64,000 nucleotides of DNA from a bacterium (GTDB lineage Bacteria > Patescibacteriota > Minisyncoccia > UBA6257 > JAUSGH01): contig JAUSGH010000002.1 of assembly GCA_030649055.1 (NCBI GenBank), forward strand, positions 5,357 to 69,356. The letters are read 5' to 3'. Position numbers and translations under genes: made by a program. This document shows, in pieces, positions 4,401-62,063 of this stretch. The notes below the pieces were generated by a model that worked only from the letters and a program-made list of their open reading frames with translations, had not been told where the DNA came from and ran no database searches. How positions within the stretch are numbered: the stretch's first letter is position 1; each line of letters opens with the position of its first letter.

Positions 4401-4407
4401 ATGAACG

Positions 4408-8136: not shown

Positions 8137-8242
8137 GAGCGCGGCGCCGCTCTAGTATTCGAGGCGGAGCGGGTAAGAAAAAGAATGGGGCGGCGAAACA
8201 CAAAAAATCGTCGACAAAAATAAGCGCGGCGGCATCCTAATC

Positions 8243-10450: not shown

Positions 10451-10487
10451 TCGCCGCTTTTCTTTCTTGCTTCATTGTTTTCTTGAT

Positions 10488-10913
10488 TTATCGCTGCACC
10501 TCCTCTCCCTCCGCGATCATCCGGTCAAGCTCCTCCATCACGTCATCCGGTATCGGAATTGCCTTGCCGGGCTTACTTATCCCCGGATACCTCCACGCGC
10601 TGATGATAGTCATTTTTGGTTTGCATAGCGACACCCGCAGCGCCTCCAGTTTTGCGTCCCCATGCTTTATTGTTTTATTGCTTTGTTGCTTTTTTGCCTC
10701 CTGTACCATCACCCAAATTTCCTCCTTGCGCCTCGGCGTATCATTCCGCTGCATCACCGCCACCGTGTTCGGCGCGACTCCCTCCTCGCGCCGCGTGCCA
10801 TTCTTAATCACGCGCCGAATACGCCCCTCGCCGAGGCCATAGTGGATCATTTTACTTTTCACATGCGACGTCCAATGCGTAGCAGTATCATCTTTTGGAA
10901 ATCGTAGCAACAT
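10488..10913 (-). CDS. hypothetical protein
   Basis: 141-aa ORF with no recognisable motifs. Confidence 0.35.
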   Translation of the reverse strand: MLLRFPKDDTATHWTSHVKSKMIHYGLGEGRIRRVIKNGTRREEGVAPNTVAVMQRNDTPRRKEEIWVMVQEAKKQQSNKTIKHGDAKLEALRVSLCKPKMTIISAWRYPGISKPGKAIPIPDDVMEELDRMIAEGEEVQR

Positions 10914-16180: not shown

Positions 16181-16451
16181 TAAAATCAAAAGCGCGCGGC
16201 GCTACATTATCATCACTCTCCTCCCCCAAGATGCAGAGCGCATGGAGGCAACCCTTCTTTTGAGCCAGCATGTTGGAGCGAGGGCAGCACTGCGCGAAGC
16301 GGAAAACCGCGACGTCGGAACAATGGCGCTGTATGAATCCCGAAACCGAGCAGTCGCCCGAGGCGACTGCTCGTGAAGGTTGAGTTCGCCTTGTTTCGGT
16401 AACGTGCGCGGTTTGTAGCGAGCAGCAGTGCTCCGAGCGGAAACCGCTGGA
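16180..16451. other. conserved multi-hairpin element, copy 2 of 3
   Basis: Shares CGACGTCGGAACAATGGCGCTGTATGAATCCCG ... GAAGGTTGAGTTCGCCTTGTTTCGGTAAC. The central hairpin is replaced by GAGCAGTCGCC/GGCGACTGCTC and the 5' hairpin by GCGCG/CGGCGC. Confidence 0.6.
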
Positions 16452-16509
16452 GAGAAAGGAGGGTTGCCGACAGAGACAGAGATCCTTCGCTTCACTCAGG
16501 ATGACATAC

Positions 16510-19125
16510 CTAGCGCAGCACTTTCCTCAAATATTCTCCCGTAAAACTCCCCTTTGCCCTCGCAATAGTTTCCGGAGTGCCGACCGCCACCACCTCCCCT
16601 CCCTTCTCTCCTCCCTCCGGCCCCAAATCAATCACCCAATCCGCGGTTTTGATGACGTCCAGGTTGTGCTCAATAACGACAACCGTGTTGCCGCGATCCA
16701 CGAGCCGATGCAGAATCTTCAAAAGATTTTCAATGTCGGCGAAATGCAATCCCGTTGTCGGCTCATCCAACAAGTACAATGTGCGGCCGGTGTCGCGCTT
16801 CGCGAGTTCCGTAGAAAGTTTGATGCGCTGGGCTTCGCCGCCGGAAAGCGTTGTGGCGCTCTGCCCCAACCGTAAGTATCCCAGCCCCACTTCGTTCACA
16901 ATCTTCAACCGGTCATACACCCACGGAATGTCGCGAAAAAACACCACCGCCTCCTCCACCGTCATCTGCAGAATGTCGTAGATATTTTTGCCTTTGTAGT
17001 CCACCTCCAACGTTTCGCGGTCAAAACGTTTTCCTTTACACACATCGCACTGCACAAACACCGTCGGCAAAAAATGCATTTCAATCGCAATCGTGCCGTT
17101 GCCCTCGCAATGTTCACACCGCCCGCCGGGCACGTTGAAACTAAACCTTCCGACTTTCCACCCCCTTATACGGGCCTCCGCCGTTGAAGCAAAAAGATCG
17201 CGGATATAACTCCACGCGCCGATGTAGGTCGCGGGGTTTGACCGCGGCGTGCGGCCGATTGCTCCCTGGTCAATGGAGATGATGTTATTCAAGTATTCCA
17301 AGCCGAGAATGGCATTCAATGGATGTTTGTAGCCCTTCGACTCCCCGCCCGCTGGCGGTTCGCTCAGGGAATAATGATTAAACTTACGCGAAAGCGTTTT
17401 CTCCAGCACGTCATACACGAGTGTGCTTTTGCCCGAACCGGAAACGCCCGTCACCGCCACAAAACGCCGCAATGGGATGTCCACGTTGATATTTTTTAAG
17501 TTATTCGCCGAGGCGCCGCGGATTTTGAGCATGTCCCTATCAATCATTCGGCGCTTTTGCGGCACCGGAATTTTTTTATCGCCGCGGAGATAATCCACGG
17601 TCAATGACTTGCCCTTCGGCGTTCCTTTGCCGAGCACTTCTTTAAGCGGCCCCGCAACCACGATATTGCCGCCGTGTACTCCGGCAGCAGGGCCGATGTC
17701 CACCAAATAATCCGCCGTACGGATAGTGTCCTCGTCGTGTTCAACAACAATGACGGTATTCCCCAGATCGCGCAGTTGCTTTAAGGTCGCGAGCAGCTTA
17801 TCGTTATCGCGCTGATGCAGACCGATGGTCGGCTCGTCCAAAATATAGAGCGTGCCCACCAGCCGCGATCCGATCTGCGAAGCCAGCCGGATGCGCTGCG
17901 ACTCCCCTCCCGAGAGCGTTCCGGCTCTGCGGTCCAACGTCAGATAATCTAACCCCACATCCAACATAAATTTCAGCCGATTTCTGATTTCTTTAAGCGG
18001 CACTTCCGCGATTTCCGCCGCCGCTTTTTTTACCTTATTACCCAACAGATCAAAAAAATCGTACGCATGGCCCACGGAAAGCCCCGTAAGGTCGGCGATG
18101 TTTTTATTGTTGATGAGCACGTTCAGCGCCTCCGGCTTCAGACGTTTGCCTTTGCATTGCGGACAAATCTCTTCGGACCACACATCCACTACCCCCAAAC
18201 CGTGGCACGCCTCGCAGGCGCCATATGGGCTGTTAAATGAAAAGAGCCGCGGCTCAATTTCCGGAAACGCGAAATTGTCCTTCGGGCATGAAAACTTTGA
18301 GGAGAGCGTGAATTCTTTTTCTCCGATGATAAACGTCGCGACATCGTTGCCGTACTTCAAAGCGCTTTCCACCGCTTCCGCAAGCCGCGCGCGCACGTCT
18401 TTGACGCCGAAGTTTAATCCGGCGGGCATGTGGTCAACAATAAGCTCAATCGTGTGCTGTTTATACCGCGAAAGTTCAATGCGGCTGTGGAGCGACAATA
18501 TTTTCCCGTCAACGCGCACCTCCCCGAAACCGCCGTTCAAAAAGTCATAGAGCAGTTGATAATATTCCCCCTTGCGTCCAATGACCGCCGGAGCGAGCAC
18601 TATAATCTCTTGCTTGGCAGCGGTAGCCCCTCGACTGTGCTCGGGGACTATTTTATCGTTACTCCCTGAGCTTGTCGAAGGGTTACCTTTACTCGCAACT
18701 TCGATGACGGTATCAACAATTTCCTCCGGCGTCATTTTGCGGATTTCGTCTCCGCACGTCGGACAATACGGCTTGCCGATACGGGCAAACAGCACGCGGA
18801 GGTAGTCATAGATTTCCGTGAGCGTCGCGACGGTTGAGCGCGGATTGCCGGAATGGCTTTTCTGGTCAATAGAAATGGCAGGAGAGAGTCCCTCAATTTC
18901 ATCAACGTCCGGCTTATCCATTTTTCCCAAAAACTGCCGCGCGTACGCGGAAAGCGACTCTATGTAGCGCCGCTGACCCTCGGCAAAAATAGTGTCAAAA
19001 GCAAGCGATGACTTCCCCGAACCGGAAAGTCCCGTGAAGACGATTAAACTGTTACGCGGCAGCTCAAGAGAAATATTCTTGAGATTATGCTCGCGGGCGC
19101 CTTTGATAATGATTTTGTCGTTCAT
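16510..19125 (-). CDS. uvrA: excinuclease ABC subunit A with in-frame palindromic-element insertion
   Basis: 871 aa with two ABC ATPase modules ([15 protein letters not shown] and [11 protein letters not shown]), LSGGEAQR signatures and zinc-finger Cys clusters. Residues [23 protein letters not shown] are encoded by element 18625-18688. Confidence 0.95.
18625..18688. repeat. RPE-like palindromic element (full) inserted in-frame in uvrA
   Basis: CCCCTCGACTGTGCTCGGGGA...TTACTCCCTGAGCTTGTCGAAGGGTTACC. Confidence 0.8.
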
Positions 19126-19137: not shown

Positions 19138-19216
19138 CGCTTCGACTTCGGTCCGACGGACATCGGACCTTCGCTCAGCGAATAAAACTTTATTGCCTGA
19201 GTTTATCGAAGGCTTA
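19138..19216. repeat. RPE-like palindromic element, intergenic uvrA-uvrB
   Basis: CTTCGACTTCG...GCTCAGCGAATAAAACTTTATTGCCTGAGTTTATCGAAGGCTTACC. Confidence 0.7.
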
Positions 19217-19218
19217 CC

Positions 19219-21324
19219 TTATTTTTTATCTTTCGTTTTTCGCCTCAACAAGTGTATTTCATCCCTCAATATCGCCGCGAGTTCAAAGTCCAATCGTTTT
19301 GACGCGTCCTTCATCTGTCTCATTTTTTCGGCAATGATGCGGTCAAGCGACCCTTGTTTCATTTTTGTCGCCGCGCCGAGCGCCGAAAATTCCGTTTTCA
19401 ATACTTCGGCGACTTCCTTCTCCCGTTTGACGTCAAACGCCGCGACAATGTCGTGGATTGCTTTGATGATGGTCTTCGGCGTGATGCCATGCGCCTTATT
19501 CCACGCAAGCTGGATATTCCGCCGGCGGTTGGTTTCAGAAATCGCGCGCGTGAGCGACCCGGTCATCACGTCGGCATACAGTACCACCTGGCCGTTCACG
19601 TTGCGCGCCGCGCGGCCGATGGTTTGGATGAGCGAAGTTTCACTCCGCAAAAATCCCTCTTTGTCGGCGTCAAGAATGGCAACGAGCGACACCTCCGGCA
19701 AGTCCAATCCTTCGCGCAACAGGTTCACGCCCACAAGCACGTCATAGTTGCCGCGGCGAAAATCTGAAAGAATCGTGATGCGGTCAATGGTCAGCACGTC
19801 GCTGTGCACATAATTCACCTTGATTTTCAACTCCTGCAAATACGCCGTGAGATCTTCCGCCATTTTTTTGGTGAGCGTGGTCACGAGCGTGCGTTCCTTC
19901 TTCTTCACGCGATCTTTGATGCGGGAAATTAAATCATCTATCTGACTAAGCGGTTGTCCCTCGACATGCTCGGGAACTATTTTATTTTTATTGCCTGAGC
20001 TTGTCGAAGGCCTACCGCCACCACTGACCGGGCGCACAATAATTTCCGGGTCTACCAGTCCCGTCGGCCGAATAATTTGTTCCACGATCTGCCCGCTCGC
20101 CAAGCTGCGTTCCAGTTCATAACCGCTTGGCGTTGCCGAGGTATAGATCGCCTGCGGCATACGCGCCTCAAACTCGGTGAACTTGAGCGGCCGGTTGTCC
20201 GCCGCACTAGGCAGACGAAAACCGAACTCAATAAGCGTTTTCTTTCGCGCCGCATCGCCCTCCGACATTCCGCGAATCTGCGGCACCGTCACGTGGCTTT
20301 CATCAATCACCATCAGGTAATCCGGCGCGCCGTCTTCGGTAACGGGAAAATACGAAAGCAGCGTATCCGGCGGCTCGCCTGCCGCGCGACCCGAAAGATG
20401 CCGAGAATAATTCTCAATGCCGTGGCAGTAGCCGATTTCTTTCATCATCGCCACGTCATAGCGCGTGCGGCGTTCCAACCGCTCCGCCTCCAGCAATTTT
20501 CCGTTTTGCTCAAAATAATGCAACCGCTCGCGGAGCTCCGCTTTAATCACCTTCATCGCGCGCGTTTTTTCCGGTCCCAGCGTGACGAAATGTTTTGCCG
20601 GAAATACATAAACCTCCGGCACTTCCTCGCGGCTACCGAATCCCTTCACAGGATCCACCGCAAAAATATGCGAGATTACGCCATCGTGAATATCAAACCG
20701 ATACAACAGATCCTGATCCGGCGCCATCATTTCCCACTGGTCGCCGCGCACGCGGAATGTGCCACGCGTGAGGTCCGCATTCGTGCGCGAAAACTGCATC
20801 GCGACCAACTTTTTCATAAGCTCCGCGCGCGTCACCGCATCACCCACTTTGAAATGCAGCATCTGTGATTCATACGCCTCCGGCGCGCCCAAGCCGTAAA
20901 TACACGACACCGACGCCACCACAATCACATCGCGTCGCGTGAGTAACGCCGCGGTTGCCGCGTGGCGCAGTTTATCAATCTCGTCGTTAATCATCGCTTC
21001 TTTATCAATGTAGGTGTCCGTCACCGGCAAATACGCCTCCGGCTGGTAGTAGTCATAATAGGACACGAAATAGTGCACAGAATTTTTCGGAAAAAACTCG
21101 CGATACTCGTTGCACAGCTGGGCGGCAAGGGTTTTATTCGGCGCAATGACGAGCGTCGGTTTTTGTACCGCCTGGATGACATTCGCGACGGTAAATGTTT
21201 TGCCGGAACCCGTGACGCCGAGAAGTGTCTGGTGCTTCATACCTTTCTTCAAACCAGAAACAAGCCACTCGATGGCTTTCGGCTGGTCCCCCGCGGGCAT
21301 AAAATTGGATTGCAACTTGAACAT
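19219..21324 (-). CDS. uvrB: excinuclease ABC subunit B with in-frame palindromic-element insertion
   Basis: 701 aa. [10 protein letters not shown] helicase motif I, DESH, beta-hairpin region and C-terminal UVR domain. Residues [22 protein letters not shown] are encoded by element 19955-20017, between the IVRP and QIDDL motifs. Confidence 0.95.
19955..20017. repeat. RPE-like palindromic element (full) inserted in-frame in uvrB
   Basis: TCCCTCGACATGCTCGGGAAC...TTATTGCCTGAGCTTGTCGAAGGCCTACC. Confidence 0.8.
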
Positions 21325-21699
21325 TATGTTGTTTTTATGCTTTCTTGCTTCGTTGCTTTCTTGTCCGAAATACCCAAACGCCCCCGCGTCTCACGACATA
21401 GGGGGTGGTAGCGCGAACTTCGCGCTCGGACATATTCAATTACATACATTCTGACACAAAAAGATGCCAAACGTCAAACCATTGACAAAACATGAGGAGG
21501 TCTTCGATGAACGGAGACGAATCGAGGGAAATGACGCAAAGGGAGAGGAACCACGCGGAGATCCAGAGAGTGATCACCGCGGCCGGACTCGTGCCGATGA
21601 ACTACACCGCCGTTCTCCTTCCTCACTAGCCCTAGCGCCTCTCGCAATACTTCGGCCACTTATCCTTCGGGACGGGTGGCCGATTCTATTTTTACACGT

Positions 21700-21870
21700 C
21701 GTCACTGTCATTCTCACGGAAGCGAGAATCCAGAGTTTTGCATTTCTAGATTCCGGATCAAGTCCGGAATGACAAAATACAATGTAAGATTGCTTCGTCG
21801 CCTCAGGCGACTCGCAATGACAGTCGCCACCTTTCTTACTTCTTACTTCCTACGTCCTACTTCTCCCCTA
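21700..21870. repeat. composite repeat-rich intergenic block (family C variants, family D)
   Basis: GTCATTCTCACGGAAGCGAGAATC, ATTCCGGATCAAGTCCGGAAT, AATGTAAGATTGCTTCGTCGCCTCAGGCGACTCGCAATGAC, then CTTACTTCTTACTTCCTACGTCCTACTTC. Confidence 0.55.
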
Positions 21871-22523: not shown

Positions 22524-22565
22524 CATATGCTCTTACTTCTTATTTCTTACGTCTTACTTCTCACT

Positions 22566-28714: not shown

Positions 28715-28787
28715 TAATAATGCGAATAGGCTACTCGTCATTATTCGCATTATTTATCCCCCATTCGCATTATTCGCGATTACTTCA
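28715..28787. repeat. ATTCGCATTATTCGCGATTAC-type tandem motif cluster (family F)
   Basis: TAATAATGCGAATAGG...CATTATTCGCATTATTTATCCCCCATTCGCATTATTCGCGATTAC. Related copies at 29563-29605, 35655-35735, 47655-47700, 50017-50060 and 50484-50503. Confidence 0.6.
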
Positions 28788-29544: not shown

Positions 29545-29600
29545 AGTATGTACAAACTCACCCCATTCGCATTATTTGCCGCCATTCGCATTATTCGCGA

Positions 29601-30734
29601 TTACTCCACGACAATTCGCTCAATCAACGGATTAATGCGCGTCAAGTATTCATAATACGAGGCGCCACCCGCGGCCGCGGCGATTTCCTCCGCGCTGATT
29701 TCTTCTTTTCCCTGCATACCCGTGAGCGTCACCCGGTCGCCGAACTTGCAAGGAATCCCCGTCACGTCCACAACAACAATATCCATAGACACTCTGCCAA
29801 GCACCCGCGCGCGATGCCCATTAATGAGCACCTCGCCGACCCCGGAAAGCGCCCGGGGGAATCCGTGCCAATAACCGACAGGCAACACCGCGAGCATTGA
29901 GTCGCGGCGCAGGCGCTCCACTAAATCATATCCGACATAATCCCCTTTCTTCGCTGTTTTTACCTCGCCGACAATGGTATGCCACGAGAGAATGGGCTGC
30001 AGATTTATTTCCGGAAGCTGGATGCGCAACTCTTTTGATGGGTAGAGACCGTAAAAGCCGATACCGACTCTAACGGCATCGTAATGATATTTTTTGTTGA
30101 CCATCGCTCCGGCGGTCGCGGCCGCGTGACGGACCAATTTCTTCCAGCCGGCTTTTTTGAGCATCCCGATCGCGCGGTCAAACGCCGCCGCCTGCATGTC
30201 AGTATAGGTCGGATAATTGATGTCCTTCGCGGATGCAAAATGCGTATACACGCCGGTCAAAAATTTTCCCGACGATGATTTCTTGAGAGCGTCGATAACT
30301 TCGGGCAGATCTTCAACATAAAAACCCTGCCGATGCATGCCGGTGTCAATTTTCAGATGAAATTCGGGGGCGTTCTTTTCAGCGCAAAGCGCGCGGAGCG
30401 CATCCATACCGGAGATAGTAAGCGTGACCTTATGTTCCTGCGCCAAAGGGTAAAGTTTCGGCAGCGTAAAACCAAGCACAAGAATCGGAGCCGTGATGCC
30501 ACGCTCGCGCATCGCAACCGCTTCAATGATGCTGTCCACGCAAAAGCCGTCAACGCCGGCTTGGAAGAGCAGCGGCGGCATGACAAAAATGCCGTGCCCA
30601 TAGGCATTGGATTTCACGACCGCGAAAAGCTTCACTTTCGCCGACAACAATTTCCGCATCGCGGCGGCGTTATGCAGCACCGCGCTGCGGCTTATTTCAA
30701 CCCATGTACGGACATCGTGCGCGAGAGATTTCAT
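29601..30734 (-). CDS. alr: alanine racemase
   Basis: PLP-binding motif AVVKSNAYGHG near the N-terminus. 377 aa with two-domain architecture. Confidence 0.9.
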   Translation of the reverse strand: MKSLAHDVRTWVEISRSAVLHNAAAMRKLLSAKVKLFAVVKSNAYGHGIFVMPPLLFQAGVDGFCVDSIIEAVAMRERGITAPILVLGFTLPKLYPLAQEHKVTLTISGMDALRALCAEKNAPEFHLKIDTGMHRQGFYVEDLPEVIDALKKSSSGKFLTGVYTHFASAKDINYPTYTDMQAAAFDRAIGMLKKAGWKKLVRHAAATAGAMVNKKYHYDAVRVGIGFYGLYPSKELRIQLPEINLQPILSWHTIVGEVKTAKKGDYVGYDLVERLRRDSMLAVLPVGYWHGFPRALSGVGEVLINGHRARVLGRVSMDIVVVDVTGIPCKFGDRVTLTGMQGKEEISAEEIAAAAGGASYYEYLTRINPLIERIVVE

Positions 30735-39375: not shown

Positions 39376-39397
39376 TGCGTTACTCCCGATAGAAAAA

Positions 39398-39425
39398 GTA
39401 GTTCCTGAGTTTATCGAAGGACTAC
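39398..39425. repeat. RPE-like palindromic element, single arm
   Basis: GTAGTTCCTGAGTTTATCGAAGGACTAC. Confidence 0.65.
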
Positions 39426-39517
39426 ATTAGAATACTTTTTTTAGCATAACAAAATAAAAAATAAAATGAAAACACCGATCGCCCTAAGGCGATCGGTGTT
39501 GAACTTTTGAGATACGC

Positions 39518-40105: not shown

Positions 40106-40213
40106 CGGCTCGCTTTCGAAATGAAATGAGTGCTAGAAGCCACGACAAAGCTGTACCCACAGGGGTACTGCGAGGAGGGGCGACAACGCAATCGCTCATT
40201 TCGAAAGCGAGCC
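40106..40213 (-). terminator. large stem-loop immediately 3' of secY (19-bp stem, ~70-nt loop with inner hairpin), followed by a U-rich tract on the minus strand
   Basis: CGGCTCGCTTTCGAAATGA...TCATTTCGAAAGCGAGCC, with the inner hairpin GTACCCACAGGGGTAC. Confidence 0.45.
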
Positions 40214-41493: not shown

Positions 41494-41499
41494 AGTATG

Positions 41500-41547
41500 A
41501 TTTGAAACTATCCGCGTTTTTCCGCGTTACTATCCGCGTCCGTCCGC
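41500..41547. repeat. ATCCGCG-type repeat (family E) abutting the secY start codon
   Basis: CTATCCGCGTTTTTCCGCGTTACTATCCGCGTCCGTCCGCTTCTATGC. Related copies at 47093-47140, 53192-53292 and 60893-60940. Confidence 0.6.
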
Positions 41548-41549
41548 TT

Positions 41550-41972
41550 CTATGCAACCACTTTACCACCCGCCGCTTCAATCTTTTTCTTCGCGCTCAA
41601 AGATACCGGAAGTTTTTCAACCGTCAACGCTTTTGCAAGAGTCCCCTCGCCCAAAATTTTGACCGGCGCTCCGGCGTCACGAATAAGTCCCGCCGCAACC
41701 AACGTGTCACGCGTGACCACAGCGCCCGCAACAGCATCAAGATCCTTGACATTCACCACCTGCATCGCCAATTTGTGCGGCTTATGATTATAACCGCGCA
41801 GCTTCGGCAAACGCATAATCAAATCACGTTCAGCCGGACGCATTCGGTGACCGGAACGGGATTTCTGACCCTTTTGTCCGCGACCGGATGTGTTTCCCCG
41901 CTTGCCGCCACGTCCGATGGTCGGTTTTGCGCGCTTTTGCGCAGTTTTTCTTTTTAGTTCATGCAATAACAT
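41550..41972 (-). CDS. rplO: 50S ribosomal protein L15
   Basis: GRGGKRGNTSGRGQKGQKSRSG motif. 140 aa. Confidence 0.9.
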   Translation of the reverse strand: MLLHELKRKTAQKRAKPTIGRGGKRGNTSGRGQKGQKSRSGHRMRPAERDLIMRLPKLRGYNHKPHKLAMQVVNVKDLDAVAGAVVTRDTLVAAGLIRDAGAPVKILGEGTLAKALTVEKLPVSLSAKKKIEAAGGKVVA

Positions 41973-44056: not shown

Positions 44057-44242
44057 TTACCAACTCGCTTTTTTCACTCCGGGAATTTGTCCTTTCCCTG
44101 CCATTTCTCGGAAACAAATGCGGCAAAGACCGAACGCTCTCATATAACCGCGTTTGCGCCCGCAGCGGAAACAACGGCGCACCTTTCGACTGGAAAATTT
44201 CGGTTTTTTATTCGCTCGCGCGATAACAGAAGTCTTTGCCAT
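44057..44242 (-). CDS. rpsN: 30S ribosomal protein S14 (zinc-binding type Z, 61 aa)
   Basis: [48 protein letters not shown] with Cys4. The ORF track begins upstream at 44347; the internal ATG is taken. Confidence 0.85.
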
Positions 44243-44255
44243 TTGCTTTTTGTTT

Positions 44256-44792
44256 TTATGCTTTCTTGCTTTCTTGCTTTTTGAACGGAACGCCGATTTC
44301 ACGATAAATCTCGAGCGCTGATTCACGCACACGCCGCCGTGGAACAACGGTGACCTCCATGCCGAAATTTACCTTCACAGTTTCCATATTGACTTCTGGA
44401 AATACTATATGCTCTTTGATGCCGATGGTCAAATTGCCATGCTCATCAACGGCGGTATTGCTGATCCCACGGAAATCACGCACGCGAGGAAGAACGGTGT
44501 AAAGCACTTTCGCGAGGAAATCACGCATCCTCCGGCGCCGCAACGTGGCCTTAAGACCAATCGTCGTTCCCTCACGAATTTTAAAACCCGCGATAGATTT
44601 CTTTGCGGGGGCAAACATCGGTTTTTGTCCCGTGATAGCCGAAAATTCCGCGACAACTTCCGGCAACACCTTATCCGCAAAATTCGCGGACTGCGAGAGC
44701 CGTCCGATTCCGGAATTCACGACAACTTTTTCAATTTTTGAGAAAGGATCGTTCTTCATATATATTAGATTACCCCTCCGCACTTTTTGCAA
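44256..44792 (-). CDS. rplE: 50S ribosomal protein L5
   Basis: L5 pattern ...VNSGIG...FKIREG...GMEVTVV. The start may be the internal ATG at 44759. Confidence 0.9.
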
Positions 44793-47082: not shown

Positions 47083-47092
47083 ATCTTTTGAT

Positions 47093-47140
47093 TATCTGCG
47101 TTCATCCGCGTTGTTATCCGCGTCTTTCCGCTTCTATTCT
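47093..47140. repeat. ATCCGCG-type repeat (family E) abutting the rpsC start codon
   Basis: TCTGCGTTCATCCGCGTTGTTATCCGCGTCTTTCCGCTTCTATTC. Confidence 0.6.
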
Positions 47141-47141
47141 C

Positions 47142-47642
47142 TTATACCGACTTTCTGTTAAAAATCCTCTTTAAAAATCCGGTCTTTTCTTTGCCTGATG
47201 TGCTCGATGTTCCCGCAGTTGTCTTCGGTGTTTTCGGCGCCTTATGCTCACGCGCTTCTTTTTTCGGTTTTTCGGGCTTCGCCATCACGAAGCGCGCGAC
47301 ACGTGTACGCGCGGATTCCGCGAGCGTCAACACCACATGGCTCATTTTTTTCTGCAGCGGCGTTGCCCGTCCCATGGCGCGCGGAAGCGAACGCTTCAGC
47401 ATCGGTCCCTGATCAACAGTAATACTAAACACAATAAGGCGATCCATGTCCATGTTCTTTACTTTCGCATTCGCGCTTGCCGAACGCAGAAGCTTCAGGA
47501 GCGGATGCGCGGCGCGGCGCGCATGGTACAACAACTGCGCCTCGGCTTCGTTCACGGGAAGTCCGCGGATAACATCGGCAACAAGACGCACCTTACGGGG
47601 TGCCATATGCAGATATTGAAGTTTTGCGGTTGCCTGTGTCAT
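47142..47642 (-). CDS. rplV: 50S ribosomal protein L22 (with basic C-terminal extension)
   Basis: APRKVRLVADVIRGLPVNEA...DRLIVFSITVDQGPMLKR. Confidence 0.9.
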   Translation of the reverse strand: MTQATAKLQYLHMAPRKVRLVADVIRGLPVNEAEAQLLYHARRAAHPLLKLLRSASANAKVKNMDMDRLIVFSITVDQGPMLKRSLPRAMGRATPLQKKMSHVVLTLAESARTRVARFVMAKPEKPKKEAREHKAPKTPKTTAGTSSTSGKEKTGFLKRIFNRKSV

Positions 47643-48931: not shown

Positions 48932-48988
48932 CTTTTTCTTCTACTCTTTTTCTTATCTCTTACTTCTTACGTCTCATTTCTCTTATTG
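48932..48988. repeat. CTTACTTCTTACGTCT-type pyrimidine-rich repeat (family D) abutting the rplB start
   Basis: TCTTTTTCTTCTACTCTTTTTCTTATCTCTTACTTCTTACGTCTCATTTCTCTTATTGCGG. Copies at 21833-21870, 22528-22565, 52335-52380 (inverted), 57283-57332 and 58268-58307. Confidence 0.6.
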
Positions 48989-49294: not shown

Positions 49295-50041
49295 TTACGG
49301 TTTCGCGGTTCTTTTCGGCAATATCTTCCGTTTTTTCACCGCCTCAACCGAAACTGCTGCTGCCGGAGCCGGTACTGCCTTCTTGTTTTTTGAAACGGCA
49401 TAGTGTTCAGCCATCGTTCCTGCCGCGTCCTTATCAATCACAATCGCACGATAGCGAAGCAAGTCGTAGACATTCAGCGATGTCGGCGCGATTGTTTTCA
49501 TATCCGGCACATTAGCTGAAGCGCGAAACACCATTTTATTTCCCATTGCGGGAATAAGCAACGCGTGACGGGATGACAACACGCCACCGAGTGATTTCAG
49601 CAACTCCTTCGTCTTCGGCGCTTCCGGCATATGCTCAATAAATTTCACCTCTCCCTTTCTCAACCGCTCGGACACAATCGCCGCAAATGCCGCGCGAAGC
49701 ATTTTCTTGTTTATTTTTTGCGCATACGTGCGCTCGGAAACCGGTCCATGAGAAGCGCCACCACCTTTCCAAATCGGAGAACGAATAGAACCATGACGCG
49801 CGCGTCCGGTATGCTTCTGTTTCCACGGCTTTCTTCCGCCGCCACGCACTTCACCGCGTCCCTTCGCGTGCGCCCAAGGTTTCCGCGCATTCGCCATTTG
49901 CGCGACTAGCGCCTGATGCGCCAAGTCCGCGCTCCACTTGCGACCGAAAAACGCGTCCGAGAGTTCGATGTCGGAGGTCGTTGTTCCGTCCAAGTTGTAT
50001 ACAGGCGCTTTCATAGTGTTATTCGCATTATTTCGTTTCAA
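49295..50041 (-). CDS. rplD: 50S ribosomal protein L4
   Basis: GRGEVRGGGRKPWKQKHTGRARHGSIRSPIWKGGG motif. The start may be the internal ATG at about 50014 (MKAPVYNLDG). Confidence 0.9.
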   Translation of the reverse strand: MKRNNANNTMKAPVYNLDGTTTSDIELSDAFFGRKWSADLAHQALVAQMANARKPWAHAKGRGEVRGGGRKPWKQKHTGRARHGSIRSPIWKGGGASHGPVSERTYAQKINKKMLRAAFAAIVSERLRKGEVKFIEHMPEAPKTKELLKSLGGVLSSRHALLIPAMGNKMVFRASANVPDMKTIAPTSLNVYDLLRYRAIVIDKDAAGTMAEHYAVSKNKKAVPAPAAAVSVEAVKKRKILPKRTAKP

Positions 50042-50057
50042 TTCGCATTGTTCGCGA

Positions 50058-50555
50058 TTACTTTGTGATTTCCAAAACGCTGCGTTTATTGTATCCCGGA
50101 ACCGCTCCGCAGATTTTCATAATACGGGACGCGGCATCAATTTCAACAAGCTCCAAATTCTTTATGGTCTTGCGCACACCGCCCATGCGTCCGGCCATGC
50201 GCCGTCCCGGAATAATACGCTGCGGCGACGTGTTGCCAATAGAGCCCGGCGCGCGGAGACGATTTTTCTGACCGTGCGTTTTCGGTCCACCATGAAAACC
50301 GTGCCGCTTCACAACCCCCTGAAAACCGTGGCTTTTGGTGATGCCGGAAACACGCACCAAATCCCCCTCGGCAAAGCCGGAGAGGTCCGCTCCCTCCTCA
50401 ACCTGGATAATGGACACGGGGAAAACCGCGTCATTTTTCCAAACCTGAGTCATATGCAATTTTTTTCCCTTGACCTTCATATTGTTATTCGCGATTACTC
50501 CCCATATTTTACAAAAGACATCTGTGCGCGCGAGGTGGCGCCAGATGTCCTTCAT
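50058..50555 (-). CDS. rplC: 50S ribosomal protein L3 (short form)
   Basis: MKVKGKKLHMTQVW...GFQGVVKRHGFHGGPKTHGQKNRLRAPGSIG. The likely start is the internal ATG at 50480, which gives about 140 aa, shorter than typical L3. Confidence 0.85.
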   Translation of the reverse strand: MKDIWRHLARTDVFCKIWGVIANNNMKVKGKKLHMTQVWKNDAVFPVSIIQVEEGADLSGFAEGDLVRVSGITKSHGFQGVVKRHGFHGGPKTHGQKNRLRAPGSIGNTSPQRIIPGRRMAGRMGGVRKTIKNLELVEIDAASRIMKICGAVPGYNKRSVLEITK

Positions 50556-52107: not shown

Positions 52108-52439
52108 ATGCGTTTTTTAATTATTATTTTATAAAAATGTGTCGACGAAAACGATTATTAGTAAATGATAAACTATTGAGGGTAAAGATGTCAATACCCC
52201 GTGCCAAATGGCGAAGTATTGTTTAATCTTGCGGAGTATTCAGTGGTGACTACGCGTTATCCACACAAACATGTTAAATGCTACTGACCCTTTATGCTTC
52301 GCCATTTTGCACAGGGTCAATAGGGGCTCTGGGGATAGGCGCAGAGAGAAGTAAGACGTAAGAAATAAGAGGTAAGAAAAACGCAGACGGTCATTGCGAG
52401 TGAAGCGAAGCAATCTTACATTAAGAAATGTTCCCATAA

Positions 52440-53191: not shown

Positions 53192-53292
53192 GTAGAAGCG
53201 GATTAACGCGGATTTTACACGCGCGGAACCACGCGGAAGCTTTTTTCCGCGTTTATCTGCGTTGTCATCCGCGTCTTTCCGCTTCTATATCT
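53192..53292. repeat. ATCCGCG-type repeat cluster (family E), direct and inverted copies, immediately upstream of the promoter
   Basis: GTAGAAGCGGATTAACGCGGATTTT...CCGCGTTTATCTGCGTTGTCATCCGCGTCTTTCCGCTTCTATATCTCC. Confidence 0.6.
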
Positions 53293-53814: not shown

Positions 53815-54140
53815 GTGCCGCGCCGCAGGCGCTACCTTATCATCACTCACTCACCAACGTGAGGAGAAGGACGAAAAAGCGTTTTTACTTCTGCGCGAAC
53901 CATAAGCGCAGCGACGGTAGTAAAATAGGAATTCAAAAGGGTGCCTTGTTCATTTTAGGCAACATATTGCAGCGATGCGTGAAATTCACGAGTAAAGAAA
54001 TCGCGAAGTCGGAACAATGGCGCTGTGTGAATCCCGAAACCCCCGCAGTGCGGGGGTGAAGGTTGAGTTCGCCTTGTTCCGGTAACTTTCGCGGTTTCTT
54101 ACGAGTAGAATTTCCGCGAGCGGAAATCGTTGCCGAAAAT
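53815..54140. other. conserved multi-hairpin element, copy 3 of 3
   Basis: The core is identical to copy 1 (CGAAGTCGGAACAATGGCGCTGTGTGAATCCCG ... GAAGGTTGAGTTCGCCTTGTTCCGGTAAC). The central hairpin is replaced by CCCCCGC-AGT-GCGGGGG and the 5' hairpin by GCGCC-GCAG-GCGC. Confidence 0.6.
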
Positions 54141-54163
54141 AAACAAGGCGACCGAGAGACAAA

Positions 54164-55913: not shown

Positions 55914-57287
<1,374 letters not shown>

Positions 57288-57335
57288 TTATTTCCTATAT
57301 CTTACTTCTTAATTCTTACGTCTTACTTCCCCCCC

Positions 57336-58265: not shown

Positions 58266-58297
58266 ATCTTTCTTTCTTACTTCCTACTTCTTACGTC

Positions 58298-59848
58298 TTA
58301 CTTCTTTGCCACAAGCCGCGGCATAAAATCCGCGAGCACCGCCTTAAGCTTCGCCTCGGTTGCATCGTCAAATGCCTTTGTCTCACGGATGCTCTGGAGA
58401 ATATCAGGATGCCGGTCGCGCAAATGCGCCCGGAGTTTTAACTCCGCCTCGCGCACGGACTCCAGCGGAAGCTCATCCAAAAATCCGCCGATACCCATGT
58501 AAAACACGCAGGTTTGTTCCTCAAACGGCATGGCGTCATATTGCGGCTGTTTCAGAAGTTCGGTGAGGTGTTGGCCTCGGTCAATGCGCTTGCGCGTCGC
58601 CTCATCAAGGTCTTGCGCAAATTGGGAAAACGCGGCGAGCTCTTCAAATTGCGCAAGCTCCAGTTTCAATTTTGACGCGACTTTCTTGACGGCTTTTGTT
58701 TGCGCCGCGGAACCCACGCGCGACACCGAAAGTCCGATGTTCACCGCCGGCCGCTGGCCTTTCGCGAACAAATCGTTCTCAAGATAAATCTGACCGTCGG
58801 TGATGGAGATGACATTTGTCGGAATGTACGCAGACACGTCACCCAGCTGCGTTTCAATAATCGGAAGCGCGGTAAGCGATCCCCCGCCCTTTTCCTTCGT
58901 CACTTTTGACGCGCGCTCCAACAAACGGGAATGGAGATAAAAAATATCACCCGGGTATGCTTCGCGTCCGGAAGGCCGGCGGAGCAACAGCGCCATCTGC
59001 CGCCACGCCCACGCGTGCTTGGACAAGTCGTCGTAAATAATTAAGGCATCCCGTCCCTTATCGCGGAAGTACTCGCCCATGCTGCATCCCGCGAACGGCG
59101 CGATGTACCAAAGCGATGCCGGGTCCGCCGCGCCGGCGACAACCACGATAGTGTATTCCATCGCCCCGCGTGATTCAAGCTCCTTCACGATTCCGGCAAC
59201 TTTGGAATATTTCTGACCGATGGCGACATATACGCAAATAGGCCGGGTTTCCTTCGGTTCGTTAAGCTGGCTCAGAATCGCGTCAATCGCAAGCGCGGTT
59301 TTTCCGGTTTGACGGTCACCGATGATCAGTTCGCGCTGGCCACGTCCAATCGGAATTGTACCGTCAATAACTTTAATGCCCGTTGCGAGCGAGACATTCA
59401 CCGGTTCGCGGTCAATGACCGGAGGCGCCGGCCGTTCAATCGGTAGATACGTCACTTTTGATTCATCAAAACTGCCCTTGCCGTCCAAGGGAATCCCCAC
59501 CGGGCTTACCACGCGGCCTAAAAGCGCCTCCCCTGTTGGCACCGAAAGCACTTGTCCTGTTTTATGTACGAGATCGCCTTCGTGAATATGGCTGTATTCG
59601 CCGAGCACCACCGCGCCCACGCTGTATTCCTCAAGATTCAAGACCAGCGCCGGCGTCGCGGTTTTTTTAGAACCTTCCGGCCACGGCTCAATCAACACTT
59701 TTTCCGACATCATTGCCCCGCGCAACCCTTCAATCTGCACAATGCCGTCGGCAACGGAAACCACGCGCCCGACCTCTTCACTCTTGGCGCCAAGTTCGGT
59801 TCCCTCAAGTTCCGCTTTTAAAATTTGTACAATATTATCTTCCTTCAT
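58298..59848 (-). CDS. atpA: F1 ATP synthase alpha subunit
   Basis: GDRQTGKTALAID P-loop. 516 aa. Confidence 0.97.
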   Translation of the reverse strand: MKEDNIVQILKAELEGTELGAKSEEVGRVVSVADGIVQIEGLRGAMMSEKVLIEPWPEGSKKTATPALVLNLEEYSVGAVVLGEYSHIHEGDLVHKTGQVLSVPTGEALLGRVVSPVGIPLDGKGSFDESKVTYLPIERPAPPVIDREPVNVSLATGIKVIDGTIPIGRGQRELIIGDRQTGKTALAIDAILSQLNEPKETRPICVYVAIGQKYSKVAGIVKELESRGAMEYTIVVVAGAADPASLWYIAPFAGCSMGEYFRDKGRDALIIYDDLSKHAWAWRQMALLLRRPSGREAYPGDIFYLHSRLLERASKVTKEKGGGSLTALPIIETQLGDVSAYIPTNVISITDGQIYLENDLFAKGQRPAVNIGLSVSRVGSAAQTKAVKKVASKLKLELAQFEELAAFSQFAQDLDEATRKRIDRGQHLTELLKQPQYDAMPFEEQTCVFYMGIGGFLDELPLESVREAELKLRAHLRDRHPDILQSIRETKAFDDATEAKLKAVLADFMPRLVAKK

Positions 59849-59861: not shown

Positions 59862-59915
59862 ATGGTTCGACTTCGCTCACCGAATAATATTTCCTGAGCT
59901 TGTCGAAGGATTTCC
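59862..59915. repeat. RPE-like palindromic element (full), intergenic atpH-atpA
   Basis: GTTCGACTTCGCTCACCGAATAATATTTCCTGAGCTTGTCGAAGGATTTCC. Confidence 0.7.
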
Positions 59916-59917
59916 TA

Positions 59918-60304
59918 TTAATCTCGTAACCGTTGTAATTTATTTGTTATTGTTCCGTCGACCAAGACGTCGCTACCAAGACGGAGTGCAACTCCGCCGA
60001 TAACGCGCGGATCAATACGTTCCGCAAATACATACCCCCTTGCTTTGAGGCGCGTTTCAAGCTTTTTCCTTGCAGAACCGCCAAGCGGCCGAGCCGTGAC
60101 AACTTCCGCCACTGTCCCGTCTTTTGCCGCCCACAACCGTTCAAACTCCTTCACCACCTTACCAGCAATCTTTAAATCATTTGAACGCTTCAAGAGCTTC
60201 TTGAAGTTTGCAATGCGCGCCGCAACTATCGCGGGTTTTGCATCCCGCAATGCTTCCACGAGCAGTCGCGCATATACTGTTTGTTTGTGCTGGATGAGAG
60301 ACAT
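59918..60304 (-). CDS. atpH: F1 ATP synthase delta (OSCP) subunit, short
   Basis: 128 aa in the conserved position between atpF and atpA. C-terminal IGGVALRLGSDVLVDGTITNKLQRL matches the delta pattern. Confidence 0.8.
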   Translation of the reverse strand: MSLIQHKQTVYARLLVEALRDAKPAIVAARIANFKKLLKRSNDLKIAGKVVKEFERLWAAKDGTVAEVVTARPLGGSARKKLETRLKARGYVFAERIDPRVIGGVALRLGSDVLVDGTITNKLQRLRD

Positions 60305-60396
60305 ATAAGCAATAAAGCATTAAATCAATAAAGCAAGAAGTTACAAGTTAGTTTTACGTTTTTTTACTTTGCTTCCATGCTTTCTTGCTTTTATGC

Positions 60397-60891
60397 TTAC
60401 ATGAGTGTTTTCATGACTTCTTCCACCGCGCGCTCGTCGTCTTCGGCGGTTACTTTGCGCAAAAGGATTTTCTCCGCCACCATAATAGCCGCCGCGCGAA
60501 TGTCAGCTTTCGCGCCATGCAACGCGTCGCGCGCCATCGTATCCGATTGCGCTTTGGCTTTTTGAAGCATGTCCTCGGCAACCGCCTTCGCGCGTCCTTC
60601 CACTTCGCGCAATCGCGCCTCTGCCTGCACCTTCGTCGCTCCCATCAACTGCTCCGCCTCCGCGTCAGCACGCGACAAAATTTCTTTGCGCGTGATATCA
60701 GCGCGGGCGATTTCTTTCTGCGCCTCCTCATGCATCGCCAAACCTTTTTCAATAGTGGATTTACGATCCTCAATCATGCGCACAATCTTCGGGAAGACAA
60801 AGCGCTTGAGGATCCAAAACACCACCAAAAAATTAAATGCTTGGGCAAAGAGTAACTTTCCGTTAATGCCGAGTTTGGTGAACAACTCCAT
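60397..60891 (-). CDS. atpF: Fo ATP synthase subunit b
   Basis: Single N-terminal TM helix (LFAQAFNFLVVFWILKRFVF) and a long charged helix. Start at the ATG at 60891. Confidence 0.85.
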   Translation of the reverse strand: MELFTKLGINGKLLFAQAFNFLVVFWILKRFVFPKIVRMIEDRKSTIEKGLAMHEEAQKEIARADITRKEILSRADAEAEQLMGATKVQAEARLREVEGRAKAVAEDMLQKAKAQSDTMARDALHGAKADIRAAAIMVAEKILLRKVTAEDDERAVEEVMKTLM

Positions 60892-60892: not shown

Positions 60893-60940
60893 GTTATCCG
60901 CGACAATCCGTGTCGCTATCCGCGTCCTTCCGCTTCTACG
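60893..60940. repeat. ATCCGCG-type repeat (family E) abutting the atpF start codon
   Basis: GTTATCCGCGACAATCCGTGTCGCTATCCGCGTCCTTCCGCTTCTACGC. Confidence 0.6.
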
Positions 60941-61206: not shown

Positions 61207-61281
61207 TTCGACCTGATTGTATTCCTTCGACAGGCTCAGGAAATAACATCACTTACTCCCTGAGCTTGTCGAAGGGCTACA
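61207..61281. repeat. RPE-like palindromic element (full), at the 3' end of atpB
   Basis: TTCCTTCGACAGGCTCAGGAAATAACATCACTTACTCCCTGAGCTTGTCGAAGGGCTAC. Confidence 0.75.
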
Positions 61282-61286
61282 TATAT

Positions 61287-62063
61287 TTAATGCGCGGGAA
61301 CCGCGTGTGTTTCATGCGATTCGTGCGTCTCCGTAGCAAACTTGATGAATATGAGCGTAAGCATAGCAAAGACCAGCGCTTGAATAAAGCCCACGAAGAT
61401 TTCCAGCAGCAAAAACGGCGTCGGCGCCACAATCGGCGCAAGATTCATAATGATGAGCAAGAGTACCTCGCCCGCGAACACATTACCGAACAACCGGAAG
61501 GAAAACGACATCACCTTCGCGAACTCCCCAACTAATTCAAGCAAGCCGACAAAAAAATGTATCGGCCCTTCGCGGAAATTAAAAAACTTGCTCCAATGCC
61601 CCCACGCGCCCAATTTTTTCATTCCGTAGATCTGAATAGCGACAACGGAGACGAGAGCTAAGGCAAGCGTCGTGTTCAAATCGCTGTTTGCCGACCTGAA
61701 AAATGGAACGAATTCTTTTACGCCTTCATGCACTTCATAAAAACCAATAGACCCGATGCCGGGCAAAATGCCAAGCCAGTTATTAAAAAGAATAAAGAAA
61801 AAAATCGTGGCAATAAAGGGAAGATACTGTTTCGCGGCGGCTCTCGTCCCCAGCGTCTCCTCCATAAAATCAAGAATGCCGCCAATCAGGATTTCCGTGA
61901 TATTTTGTCCGCTCCGCGGAACCATCTTGAGCGACCGCGCGATAAGCAAGGCTGTCAGCCCCACAATCGCCGAAACCACAAGACCCAACACCAAACTATT
62001 GGCGAGCGGGAATTCGCCGATATGCGCAAGTATTTCCGGTTTTAAACTTACGTGCAATTCCAT
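61287..62063 (-). CDS. atpB: Fo ATP synthase subunit a
   Basis: 258 aa with a polytopic profile. Contains the conserved Arg in SFSFRLFGNVFAGE and the C-terminal LQALVFAMLTLIFI. Confidence 0.9.
   Translation of the reverse strand: MELHVSLKPEILAHIGEFPLANSLVLGLVVSAIVGLTALLIARSLKMVPRSGQNITEILIGGILDFMEETLGTRAAAKQYLPFIATIFFFILFNNWLGILPGIGSIGFYEVHEGVKEFVPFFRSANSDLNTTLALALVSVVAIQIYGMKKLGAWGHWSKFFNFREGPIHFFVGLLELVGEFAKVMSFSFRLFGNVFAGEVLLLIIMNLAPIVAPTPFLLLEIFVGFIQALVFAMLTLIFIKFATETHESHETHAVPAH

Follow-up and report, generated by a model that had tools for sequence, protein, structure and literature searches.

A family of rod-shaped intergenic elements with covarying helices and invariant loops in Patescibacteria

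Three similar non-coding sequences lie between genes in a 64-kb stretch of a patescibacterial genome (contig JAUSGH010000002.1, positions 5,357 to 69,356; referred to as the window), and they raise the question of whether they are copies of a structured RNA, of a mobile element or of a passive repeat at gene ends. The original prediction, made from the letters of the window, described a three-copy element in which whole hairpins had been replaced while their pairing was kept. We report that these copies belong to a family of ~210–270-nt rod-shaped elements that is specific to the Patescibacteria, or Candidate Phyla Radiation (CPR). The reading that we favour, tentatively and with considerable doubt, is that each rod may be a protein-binding non-coding RNA module made from the + strand and spread by recombination.

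Three copies fold into a long rod

The three copies all lie on the + strand and adjoin the 3′ ends of ychF (copy 1), uvrA (copy 2) and metK (copy 3). Their places and common orientation, as originally described, were borne out by two direct-repeat families, D5 (103 nt; 7929–8031, 16240–16342 and 53934–54036) and D7 (91 nt; 8056–8146, 16377–16467 and 54060–54150), over which copies 1 and 3 are 90–92% identical and copies 2 and 1 65–69% identical. They were also matched by the covariance model described below (referred to as R1), at 136 bits for copy 1 (E 1e-25), 132 bits for copy 2 (E 6e-25) and 146 bits for copy 3 (E 1e-27); with all positions scored and filters off, R1 revealed no fourth copy in the window. 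Direct reading and alignment recovered the shared strings, namely the core CGA(A/C)GTCGGAACAATGGCGCTGT(G/A)TGAATCCCG, the 3′ box (G/A)AGGTTGAGTTCGCCTTGTT(C/T)CGGTAAC and the 5′ box CTAC(C/A)TTATCATCACTC, with small differences from the previously quoted strings in copy 2 (CGACGTCGG..., TACATTATC... and TTGTTTCGG).

RNAalifold folded the three copies into a single long hairpin of 73 predicted pairs, 18 of them compensatory (both sides changed). The long-range helix CGGAACAA-GGCG / CGCC-TTGTTCCG, which had been proposed to join the core to the 3′ box, does pair and is one segment of this much longer rod. The variable hairpins that had been noticed between these two strings sit at its tip. The parts of the rods in the window are as follows.

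7935–8148, + strand: rod copy 1, an extended hairpin with a 24-nt closing stem GGCGCGGCGCTCATTTTCGGCAAC / GTTGCTGAAAATGAGCGCGGCGCC (R1 match 7936–8145; inverted repeat I3, 92% complementary; RNAalifold concurs)
16243–16469, + strand: rod copy 2, the most divergent (R1 match 16247–16466; inverted repeat I6), with pairing kept by compensatory changes relative to copies 1 and 3
53939–54153, + strand: rod copy 3 (R1 match 53941–54149), with a closing stem GGGTGCC.../...GGCGACC read from the sequence
8018–8031, + strand (equivalents 16329–16342 and 54023–54036): apical internal loop, 5′ strand CTGTGTGAATCCCG, its columns invariant in 34 and 32 aligned members
8056–8067, + strand (equivalents 16377–16388 and 54060–54071): apical internal loop, 3′ strand AGGTTGAGTTCG, invariant in the family alignments
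8034–8053, + strand: tip hairpin of copy 1, GGTCCGATGGCCATCGGACC, a perfect 20-bp palindrome
16348–16372, + strand: tip hairpin of copy 2, GAGCAGTCGCC-CGA-GGCGACTGCTC, variable between copies
54040–54056, + strand: tip hairpin of copy 3, CCCCCGC-AGT-GCGGGGG, variable between copies
53989–54000 (approximate, by homology), + strand: purine-rich internal loop of copy 3, 5′ arm, CGAGTAAAGAAA (CGAGCGAGGAGG-like in most of the family), partly drawn as paired in the three-copy fold
54099–54109 (approximate, from family alignments), + strand: purine-rich internal loop of copy 3, 3′ arm, TTACGAGTAGA (CGACGAGCGAGGA-like in the family)

Minus-strand open reading frames (ORFs) of 97–114 aa overlap the copies and would speak for a small-protein gene or its pseudogene remnant. 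However, these ORFs have only 37 aa in common, in one arm, beyond which the variable hairpin puts them out of frame; Pfam matches none of them; and the substitutions are compensatory in pairs rather than patterned by codons. The copies are non-coding, as first proposed. Chance or an assembly artefact is contradicted by the recurrence of the family in independent assemblies from many studies, and all four of these origins are effectively refuted.

The family extends across Patescibacteria

An exact-pattern scan with the two most conserved strings, TGAATCCCG N12–42 AGGTTGAGTTCG, yielded 41 loci in a one-genome-per-species collection, 62 further loci in a metagenome collection and none in a viral collection. 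About 30 of the 41 carry covarying flanks, under the record names Jorgensen-, Lipton- and Wolfebacteria, Paceibacterota, Saccharibacteria and 'Patescibacteria group'; one rod-bearing contig (L026) is labelled Spirochaetia, which we take to be mis-binning. The 11 pattern matches in Acidobacteriota, Chloroflexia and other groups consist of the pattern only, within coding-looking sequence.

R1 was made from 32 members and comprises 204 positions and 51 pairs, the rods themselves measuring 210–270 nt with their closing stem. At E≤1e-10 it matched 88 copies in Patescibacteria genomes and metagenomes, of which 80 are distinct, the counted copies including orthologues and being phylogenetically related. 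The covariance-model search, a check suggested along with the original prediction and run here with a model built from relatives, brought in further members and covariation from related genomes and metagenomes; rather than a three-copy element, the window holds part of a family with at least 80 distinct members elsewhere. No rod was matched in the IMG/VR, phage or plasmid collections, nor by blastn among 5,426 complete E. coli genomes. The 805-kb chromosome OY970216.1 carries six exact-pattern copies and two more in flanking sequence, hence at least eight. The window itself resembles a patescibacterial genome: the closest relatives of its metK are in MAGs labelled Patescibacteria group, it encodes a DUF5667 protein, and it shares synteny with contig L047. 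Where repeats occur, metagenome contigs may be chimeric: the rod at L094:327–544 combines the 5′ flank of the L005 locus with the 3′ flank of the L041 locus, which stems either from recombination between copies or from a chimeric assembly of the repeat.

Covariation and anatomy of the rod

The fold was assessed on two alignments, of which the model-fitted one leans towards R1 and the structure-blind MAFFT one does not. In the MAFFT alignment, 88.8% of the cells were paired, against 67.2% after shuffling and 37–55% when partners were slid by 1–3 columns, and 44 of the 51 pairs had changed on both sides. The model-fitted alignment of the 80 distinct members gave 93.3% against 68.2% and 35–56%, respectively, with 45 of the 51 pairs changed on both sides. 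In neither alignment did any of 500 shuffles reach the observed value. The covariation is overwhelming with or without structure guidance, confirming the proposed selection for secondary structure.

From base to tip, the rod starts with a closing stem of 10–25 bp that is different in each copy, followed by a helix that reads AGCCAGC/GCUGGCG in many members, an internal loop with a GGAGCGA-like 5′ strand and a GAGYGGAAA-like 3′ strand, and a sequence-conserved helix AAAUU/AAUUU present in at least 90% of members. Beyond these lie a large internal loop, CGAGCGAGGAGG-like on one strand and CGACGAGCGAGGA-like on the other, and a ~20-bp covarying helix below the apical loop; GAGCGAGGA-like strings occur on both strands of two purine-rich internal loops. 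On the + strand, the conserved unpaired strings are rich in purines, as is common in structured RNAs.

Near the tip lies an invariant asymmetric loop, 5′-CUGUNUGAAUCCC / 5′-AGGUUGAGUUCG. Written as 5′-C-UGUNUGA-AUCCC / 5′-AGGUU-GA-GUU-CG, this apical loop has constant letters in the 80 members, as do helix 11 and its flanks, and ~25 invariant loop nucleotides are kept across CPR classes. Two invariant GA dinucleotides, one on each strand, can face each other as tandem G-A pairs in the 80 members, and a paired A-to-G and U-to-C change at L003:5106, a single event, fits an A-U to G-C swap in the tandem G-A register. The two sides of the loop measure 6 nt and 3 nt, sizes that differ from the 3-nt bulge which a canonical kink-turn (k-turn) has between its stem and its tandem sheared G-A pairs. 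To judge from its letters, the apical loop is reminiscent of a tandem G-A, k-turn or loop-E motif.

Above this loop, the replacement of one helix by another extends family-wide, with 71 different tip inserts, of which 21 (30%) are perfect palindromes. The tip hairpin is dispensable, two members carrying only UUC or UUU in its place, and some tip types recur in different genomes (CCGCCAGCTGGCGG, GGTTTCATTAATGAAACC and GAGCACATAA...TTATGTGCTC). Two members (L026 and L035) have an additional ~40-nt hairpin inside an internal loop. With its invariant centre and its free ends and tip, the element looks like an RNA with a closing stem and is the reverse of a transposon.

Pairing is biased to the + strand

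To compare the arms, each 5′ arm was aligned with its reverse-complemented 3′ arm, G-U and A-C alike counting as mismatches. On the + strand, G-U outnumbered A-C by 83:42 in this unbiased arm-against-arm alignment and by 184:93 at the model pairs, one invariant U-G having been set aside. The excess was present in rods with their 3′ end at the stop codon of a convergent gene (75:23; 22 copies with a G-U excess and 3 with an A-C excess) as well as in rods co-oriented with their neighbour (35:17; 13 copies and 2 copies, respectively), these counts being indicative rather than formal tests because the copies are not independent. A G-U excess on the + strand whatever the direction of the neighbour indicates that the fold is selected on the element's own strand and not in the mRNA of the neighbour. 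Moreover, the + strand of the window is the C-rich one (GC skew –0.11 to –0.14), so that the excess runs against the expected C-to-T skew.

This bias bears on a reading in which the rods are cis-acting palindromic repeats, of the kind of the enterobacterial repetitive intergenic consensus (ERIC), the repetitive extragenic palindromic (REP), Correia or Rickettsia palindromic elements (RPEs). Such repeats would be carried passively in the transcripts of their neighbours as a terminator, a 3′-end stabiliser or an RNase III or RNase E site, in either orientation, and would spread selfishly. A hairpin acting in the 3′ untranslated region of its neighbour is predicted to be optimised on that neighbour's strand; the + strand pairing is optimised even where the neighbour is antisense, which is the opposite and makes this reading unlikely. 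Nor would a terminator or stabiliser need the ~25 loop nucleotides that are invariant across CPR classes.

Strand-specific pairing that is independent of neighbour transcription is also in keeping with a single-stranded DNA (ssDNA) substrate, G-T being the best-tolerated DNA mismatch. Here the + strand would fold as ssDNA and be read by a host or mobile-element enzyme that copies or exchanges the inner module between hairpins, candidates being a priming or replication factor, a tyrosine recombinase of the attC type or an HUH/Y1 transposase such as those that move REPs and IS200/IS605. In most cases the strand that folds lies antisense to the gene after whose stop codon it is placed, and the bottom strands of integron attC sites behave likewise. 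Against this stands the replication context of the window, where the + strand, as inferred from GC skew, is the leading-strand template and rarely single-stranded. The near-invariance of the loops in CPR groups as distant as Saccharibacteria, Paceibacterota and Jorgensenbacteria would likewise be unusual for selfish DNA. We regard the ssDNA reading as unlikely, to much the same degree as the cis-acting repeat.

Genomic placement

Placement was examined for 82 non-redundant copies, with genes called by longest-ORF heuristics. All 82 are intergenic. Of 66 cases, 44 have the rod 3′ end next to the stop codon of a convergent gene (typically at –4 to +47 nt, median ~12 nt) and 22 have it next to the start of a co-oriented one (mostly at 3–62 nt), while the spacer on the 5′ side is longer, often 100–250 nt. 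This polarity is compatible with an upstream promoter or a leader. The neighbours are unrelated housekeeping genes, with ychF occurring three times in different orientations; others, read from their sequences, are presumably efp, pnp, a UvrD-like helicase gene, trmD and ddl. Among loci with two rods, the 5′ ends face each other in nine pairs and the 3′ ends in none, with three further pairs in direct orientation, a head-to-head bias that arises in part because the 3′ ends abut genes. On the + strand, T-runs after the rod 3′ end are at background level (2.4 of 9 nt).

Several of these observations favour the cis-acting repeat: copies are interspersed, strictly intergenic, beside unrelated housekeeping genes and in both orientations relative to them; the convergent cases cluster near stop codons; a U-run follows the rod on the gene's strand; all three window copies lie between a stop codon and a terminator-like hairpin; and head-to-head pairs predominate, as reported for REPs (PMC3733652).

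On OY970216.1, four paralogous proteins adjoin rods (L020:786–2726, L009:4424–5683, L003:1445–2764 and L034:2551–3876). They have a type-IV-pilin N-terminal methylation motif and a LamG-like domain, and one of them is flanked by two inverted rods.

The 5′ hairpin is a separate module

The original prediction counted a 5′ hairpin and a TACCTTATCATCACTC box as part of the element. The sequence confirmed that these hairpins vary while keeping their pairing, and they are found on the minus strand as follows.

7865–7904, minus strand: 5′ module of copy 1, box GAGTGATGATAAGGTAG, hairpin AGGCGT-TGC-ACGCCT, then TTGATTTTAA; GTAG-tagged and terminator-like (terminator scan, box search)
16181–16218, minus strand: 5′ module of copy 2, box GAGTGATGATAATGTAG, hairpin AGCGC-CGC-GCGCT, then TTTGATTTTA (terminator scan); orthologous at L047:2937–2970
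53820–53848, minus strand: 5′ module of copy 3, box GAGTGATGATAAGGTAG, hairpin GCGCC-TGC-GGCGC, without a T-run

The 17-nt box CTACCTTATCATCACTC has three matches in the window, where 0.06 are expected. On the minus strand it reads GAGTGATGATAA(G/T)GTAG and is directly followed by a short GC-rich hairpin, so that in all three copies, 3′ of ychF, uvrA and metK, ...AAGGTAG or ...AATGTAG precedes a hairpin of 13–15 nt. In copies 1 and 2 the hairpin is followed by TTTGATTTT, and the scan rates both as terminator-like (GC-rich stem-loop with a U-run). In sister strains the orthologue of copy 3 reads AAAAAATCCG-TTGG-CGGATTTTTT, with a clear T-run, and the ~90 nt between the 5′ module and the rod of copy 3 are conserved (alignment with L042–L044). 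REP elements are defined by a GTAG that directly precedes a short palindrome lying downstream of genes (PMC3733652), and on the minus strand the 5′ hairpin of each copy fits this definition.

The box is confined to the lineage of the window (12 matches in 10 fetched loci), and it occurs without a rod of the family after ychF in the syntenic contig L047 and in a second case at L103:344. The 5′ hairpin and box are hence a lineage-specific module rather than a part of the family-wide element, and the unit first described is a composite. Along the minus strand, the order in the window lineage is gene stop codon, rod (as its reverse complement), box and REP-like or terminator hairpin. That L047 terminates ychF with the same box and hairpin but without a rod counts against the cis-acting repeat, whereas the GTAG-tagged REP-like hairpins beside the rods in this lineage are a point for the ssDNA reading. 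The ychF region of L047 is too diverged for insertion borders to be defined; at L047:11050–11330, the box and terminator are accompanied by a branched structure in place of the rod (–123 kcal/mol, z –6.5).

Modular turnover

Copies 1 and 3 are 90–92% identical over their inner 190 nt, even at helix positions where the family varies freely, while their outermost 11–12 bp are unrelated yet complementary. Likewise, the six paralogs of OY970216.1 have an almost identical central region of ~130 nt, but outer arms and tips that differ and still pair; between paralogs with near-identical inner cores, the outermost 10–17 bp differ completely. Downstream of metK, strains with MetK proteins 91–92% identical have orthologous outer arms and GA-rich loops and an entirely different apex. 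After uvrA, where the window has a single rod, L047:1337–2904 has two direct rods flanking a 1.36-kb insert that encodes a PemK/MazF-like toxin (1712–2113) and a small ORF (2340–2591). These data show a turnover by modules, in which the inner core, the tip and the loops are each exchanged or invaded.

The variant at the metK site (L042:2221–2435, also in L043, L044 and L045) has the apex AAAUCGAGUGGUCGG...GAGCACAUAAAGCCAUUAUGUGCUC... and scores 44 bits with R1, with a fold z-score of –8.9, which points to a wider superfamily barely seen by R1. Also in L047, the palindrome GCCTGCCTGCCGG(C/T)AGGCAGG occurs three times in 350 nt (L047:1281–1304, ~1401–1421 and 1608–1629), with one copy nested in a rod and another standing where the terminator hairpin would be, and is found in L060 as well. 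A further repeat, GACCCGGAATCCAGAAACCC(R)TCTTTGTC, stands directly beside the rod 3′ end at L047:1300–1330 and 2660–2692, in L060 and in L070, and is not present in the window.

The exchange of the apex at the metK site and the rod-flanked insert of L047 argue for the ssDNA reading, as do the perfect palindromes among the tips and those nested in a rod and replacing a terminator hairpin in L047. However, the ends of the rods are their least conserved part, the rods are 5–10 times longer than REP or attC sites, and the viral, phage and plasmid collections gave no match. Within ±2.5 kb of 36 copies or immediately flanking the 82, no Y1 transposase or REP-associated tyrosine transposase (RAYT), IS110 or integrase gene was found, and no transposase, reverse transcriptase or nuclease was recurrent there. 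In the 82 flanks no direct repeat is evident as a target-site duplication, the check first proposed for mobility, the ends of the element not being exactly fixable. On the original choice between a structured RNA and a mobile element, the data favour a strand-specific fold of the + strand, and neither a promoter signal (upstream of 81 rods) nor a transposase (in the flanks examined) was found.

Comparison with known RNA families and repeats

At the gathering threshold, Rfam 15 gave no matches in the 64-kb window, and in 18 rod-bearing loci it matched tRNA and rRNA only, none of them on a rod; ARAGORN found no tRNA and no tmRNA in the window. The element is absent from Rfam 15, in agreement with the earlier failure to match it to a known RNA class. 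A full-text literature search, including the conserved strings themselves, yielded no description of it. Among individual motifs, a split tRNA T-loop (GAAUCC...GGUU) was rejected as the base equivalent to A58 is not conserved, the UGUNR/AAUCCC strings of the signal recognition particle Alu domain for their wrong topology, the sarcin-ricin loop for a register that clashes with a covarying A-U pair, and the integron GTTRRRY core because it stands at the apex without its partner box; the hammerhead core gave no match.

A divergent version of a known RNA beyond the reach of Rfam (6S-like, an omega or HEARO-type guide scaffold, or a C/D-box-like k-turn RNA) would account for a rod with large internal loops, for the opposed invariant GA dinucleotides and for recurrent sub-threshold matches to C/D-box snoRNAs, which are caused by GAUGA and CUGA strings. 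Yet the matches of the three rods at E≤10 are noise of 10–19 bits, against thresholds of 35–50, the bulge geometry as read from the sequence is unlike that of a canonical k-turn, IscB, TnpB and Nop-type genes were not found nearby, and a single 805-kb chromosome holds at least eight copies, making this reading very improbable. 6S RNA in particular resembles the rod as a ~200-nt structure with paired termini, large internal loops, a terminal hairpin, covarying helices and conserved loops, but the loop sequences are unrelated, no Rfam 6S match was obtained at E≤10, and the rods are present in many copies per genome (three in 64 kb of the window).

Among repeats, ERICs, or intergenic repeat units (IRUs), are interspersed imperfect palindromes that are conserved across genera, lie in both orientations and have internal insertions. 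The rods are similar to them as interspersed, intergenic, imperfectly palindromic long hairpins in both gene orientations, with internal-insertion variants and a sequence kept across genera. They differ from ERICs in being about twice as long, in occurring in Patescibacteria only (with no match in the E. coli genomes), in their invariant asymmetric and purine-rich loops and in a pairing biased to one strand irrespective of the neighbour. The likeness to REPs and bacterial interspersed mosaic elements (BIMEs) lies in the 5′ hairpin on the minus strand, with GTAG and a short GC-rich palindrome downstream of genes (PMC3733652), and, for the rods, in the predominance of head-to-head pairs (PMC3733652). 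The rod itself is 210–270 nt and not 20–40 bp, lacks a GTAG tag and has no RAYT gene in the flanks examined; only the accessory hairpin is REP-like, and it is present in few copies (3 in the window and 12 box matches over 10 loci).

The defining features of miniature inverted-repeat transposable elements (MITEs) are target-site duplications and terminal inverted repeats that are conserved. Correia/NEMIS and RUP elements and RPEs share with the rods that they are small, non-coding, multi-copy, foldable, found in compact genomes, without a transposase of their own and associated with rearrangements. In contrast, the termini of the rod are its least conserved part and its centre the most conserved, the reverse of a transposase-driven MITE; no duplication was seen and no parent insertion sequence found in the flanks examined. 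Of the classic MITE features, conserved terminal inverted repeats are missing. Integron attC sites are 57–141 nt long, with R and L boxes at their base, and form cassette arrays beside an integrase. Like them, the rod is a structure-conserved, sequence-variable hairpin after a stop codon, its folded strand is antisense to the gene and its terminal structure varies. Unlike them, rods are longer, dispersed beside housekeeping genes and conserved in sequence at the apex, and their GTTGAGT fits GTTRRRY by position-independent chance, without an RYYYAAC partner. By the defining tests of MITEs, REPs, attC sites and 6S RNA, the rod is none of these; its nearest kinds are the palindromic repeats of the ERIC, REP and RPE types and the rod-like protein-binding RNAs.

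A candidate protein-binding RNA

In the reading that we tentatively prefer, a non-coding RNA would be made from the element's own (+) strand and would serve a conserved host protein as a scaffold or decoy; this protein would recognise the invariant loops, and the helices would be needed only for pairing. Recombination or gene conversion, acting on the inner core between intergenic hairpins at gene ends, would multiply the copies and keep them uniform, and small perfect palindromes would be nested secondarily at the tip. What the data show is the family with its fold, its strand bias, its placement in the genome and its replacement by modules; that the folded molecule is RNA rather than ssDNA, that it binds a protein and that it spreads in this manner are steps we infer.

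A number of observations weigh against this RNA reading. Neither sigma-70-like promoters nor –10 hexamers are enriched upstream of 81 rods on the + strand relative to the opposite strand, which also suits ssDNA, and five head-to-head pairs have 5–32 nt between their 5′ ends, leaving no space for separate upstream promoters. As to context, minus-strand transcription is favoured by the 44 of 66 convergent placements, by an A-run before the rod 5′ end (3.4 of 9 nt against a background of 2.4), equivalent to a U-run after the rod on the minus strand, and by the terminator-like hairpin that follows the rod on the minus strand in the window lineage. Signs of a DNA-level element are given by the 21 of 71 tip hairpins that are perfect palindromes and by the small perfect palindrome GCCTGCCTGCCGGYAGGCAGG that is nested in an L047 rod and also replaces the terminator hairpin. 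The G-U bias is modest, at 2–3:1, a ratio below expectation for a classic structured RNA, and ssDNA also tolerates G-T. Finally, no gene recurs with the rods, whether the ORFs within 2.5 kb of 36 copies or the genes immediately flanking 82 copies are compared all against all by BLAST.

Other repeats and features of the window

Another interspersed repeat, with the core CCTGAGCTTGTCGAAGG, is present in ~10 copies (4351–4412, 6754–6815, 7327–7368, 13938–13999, 18638–18699, 19189–19230, 19967–20028, 39397–39438, 59886–59927 and 61218–61293), some as inverted pairs (61218–61246 / 61253–61281), and is also found beside the uvrA stop codon in L047. Four families of short-run repeats have a period of 8–10 nt (TTGCTTTC..., ATCCGCGT..., ATTCGCA... 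and CTTACTTCTTAC...), many of them at or near ORF ends, and may be leader or promoter-region repeats of minus-strand genes. They are located as follows.

D1: 10451–10498, 10646–10701, 21321–21368, 44234–44289, 60353–60400
D3: 41498–41553, 47092–47147, 53243–53288, 60894–60939
D6: 28741–28785, 29562–29606, 50019–50063
D8: 21831–21864, 22528–22561, 48948–48981, 57283–57330, 58272–58305

Long inverted repeats unrelated to the rods lie at 52196–52317 (arms of 24 nt, 88% complementary), 40107–40213 (18 nt, 100%) and 53193–53287 (21 nt, 86%), with spacers of 53–74 nt. On the minus strand, a near-consensus sigma-70-like promoter (TTGACT-17-TATAAT) at 7673–7701 is followed, on to ~7630, by GGAGGAG and ATG. 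Conservation of both the ribosome-binding site and the start in L047 suggests that a small minus-strand gene has gone unannotated here.

Implications

Patescibacteria account for a large share of bacterial diversity and have minimal genomes of ~0.6–1 Mb, and to our knowledge almost nothing is known of their non-coding RNAs and repeats. An element of 200 nt or more, with 45 covarying pairs and ~25 invariant nucleotides, that is kept in multiple copies in such genomes, which shed almost all that is dispensable, is likely to be functional or else to persist by some very effective means. A bolder conjecture, which we consider rather unlikely, is that the rods are the RNA (or ssDNA) part of an unrecognised CPR-wide system, either as a multi-copy ribonucleoprotein scaffold or guide for an uncharacterised protein or as a new kind of selfish module, lacking its own transposase, that seeks hairpin tips and builds nested rods. 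The HEARO motif, once an orphan, later proved to be the omega RNA of IscB. If the conjecture holds, the rods would be a new class and not another REP- or MITE-like repeat.

In either case, R1 can be used for annotation and, in CPR genomes, to mark hot spots of recombination. If the rod is a DNA-level element, its mode of spread, with a conserved core, free ends and insertion or conversion at the tip, would be unlike that of known MITEs and REPs. If it is an RNA, it would be a candidate for a new protein–RNA system in Patescibacteria.

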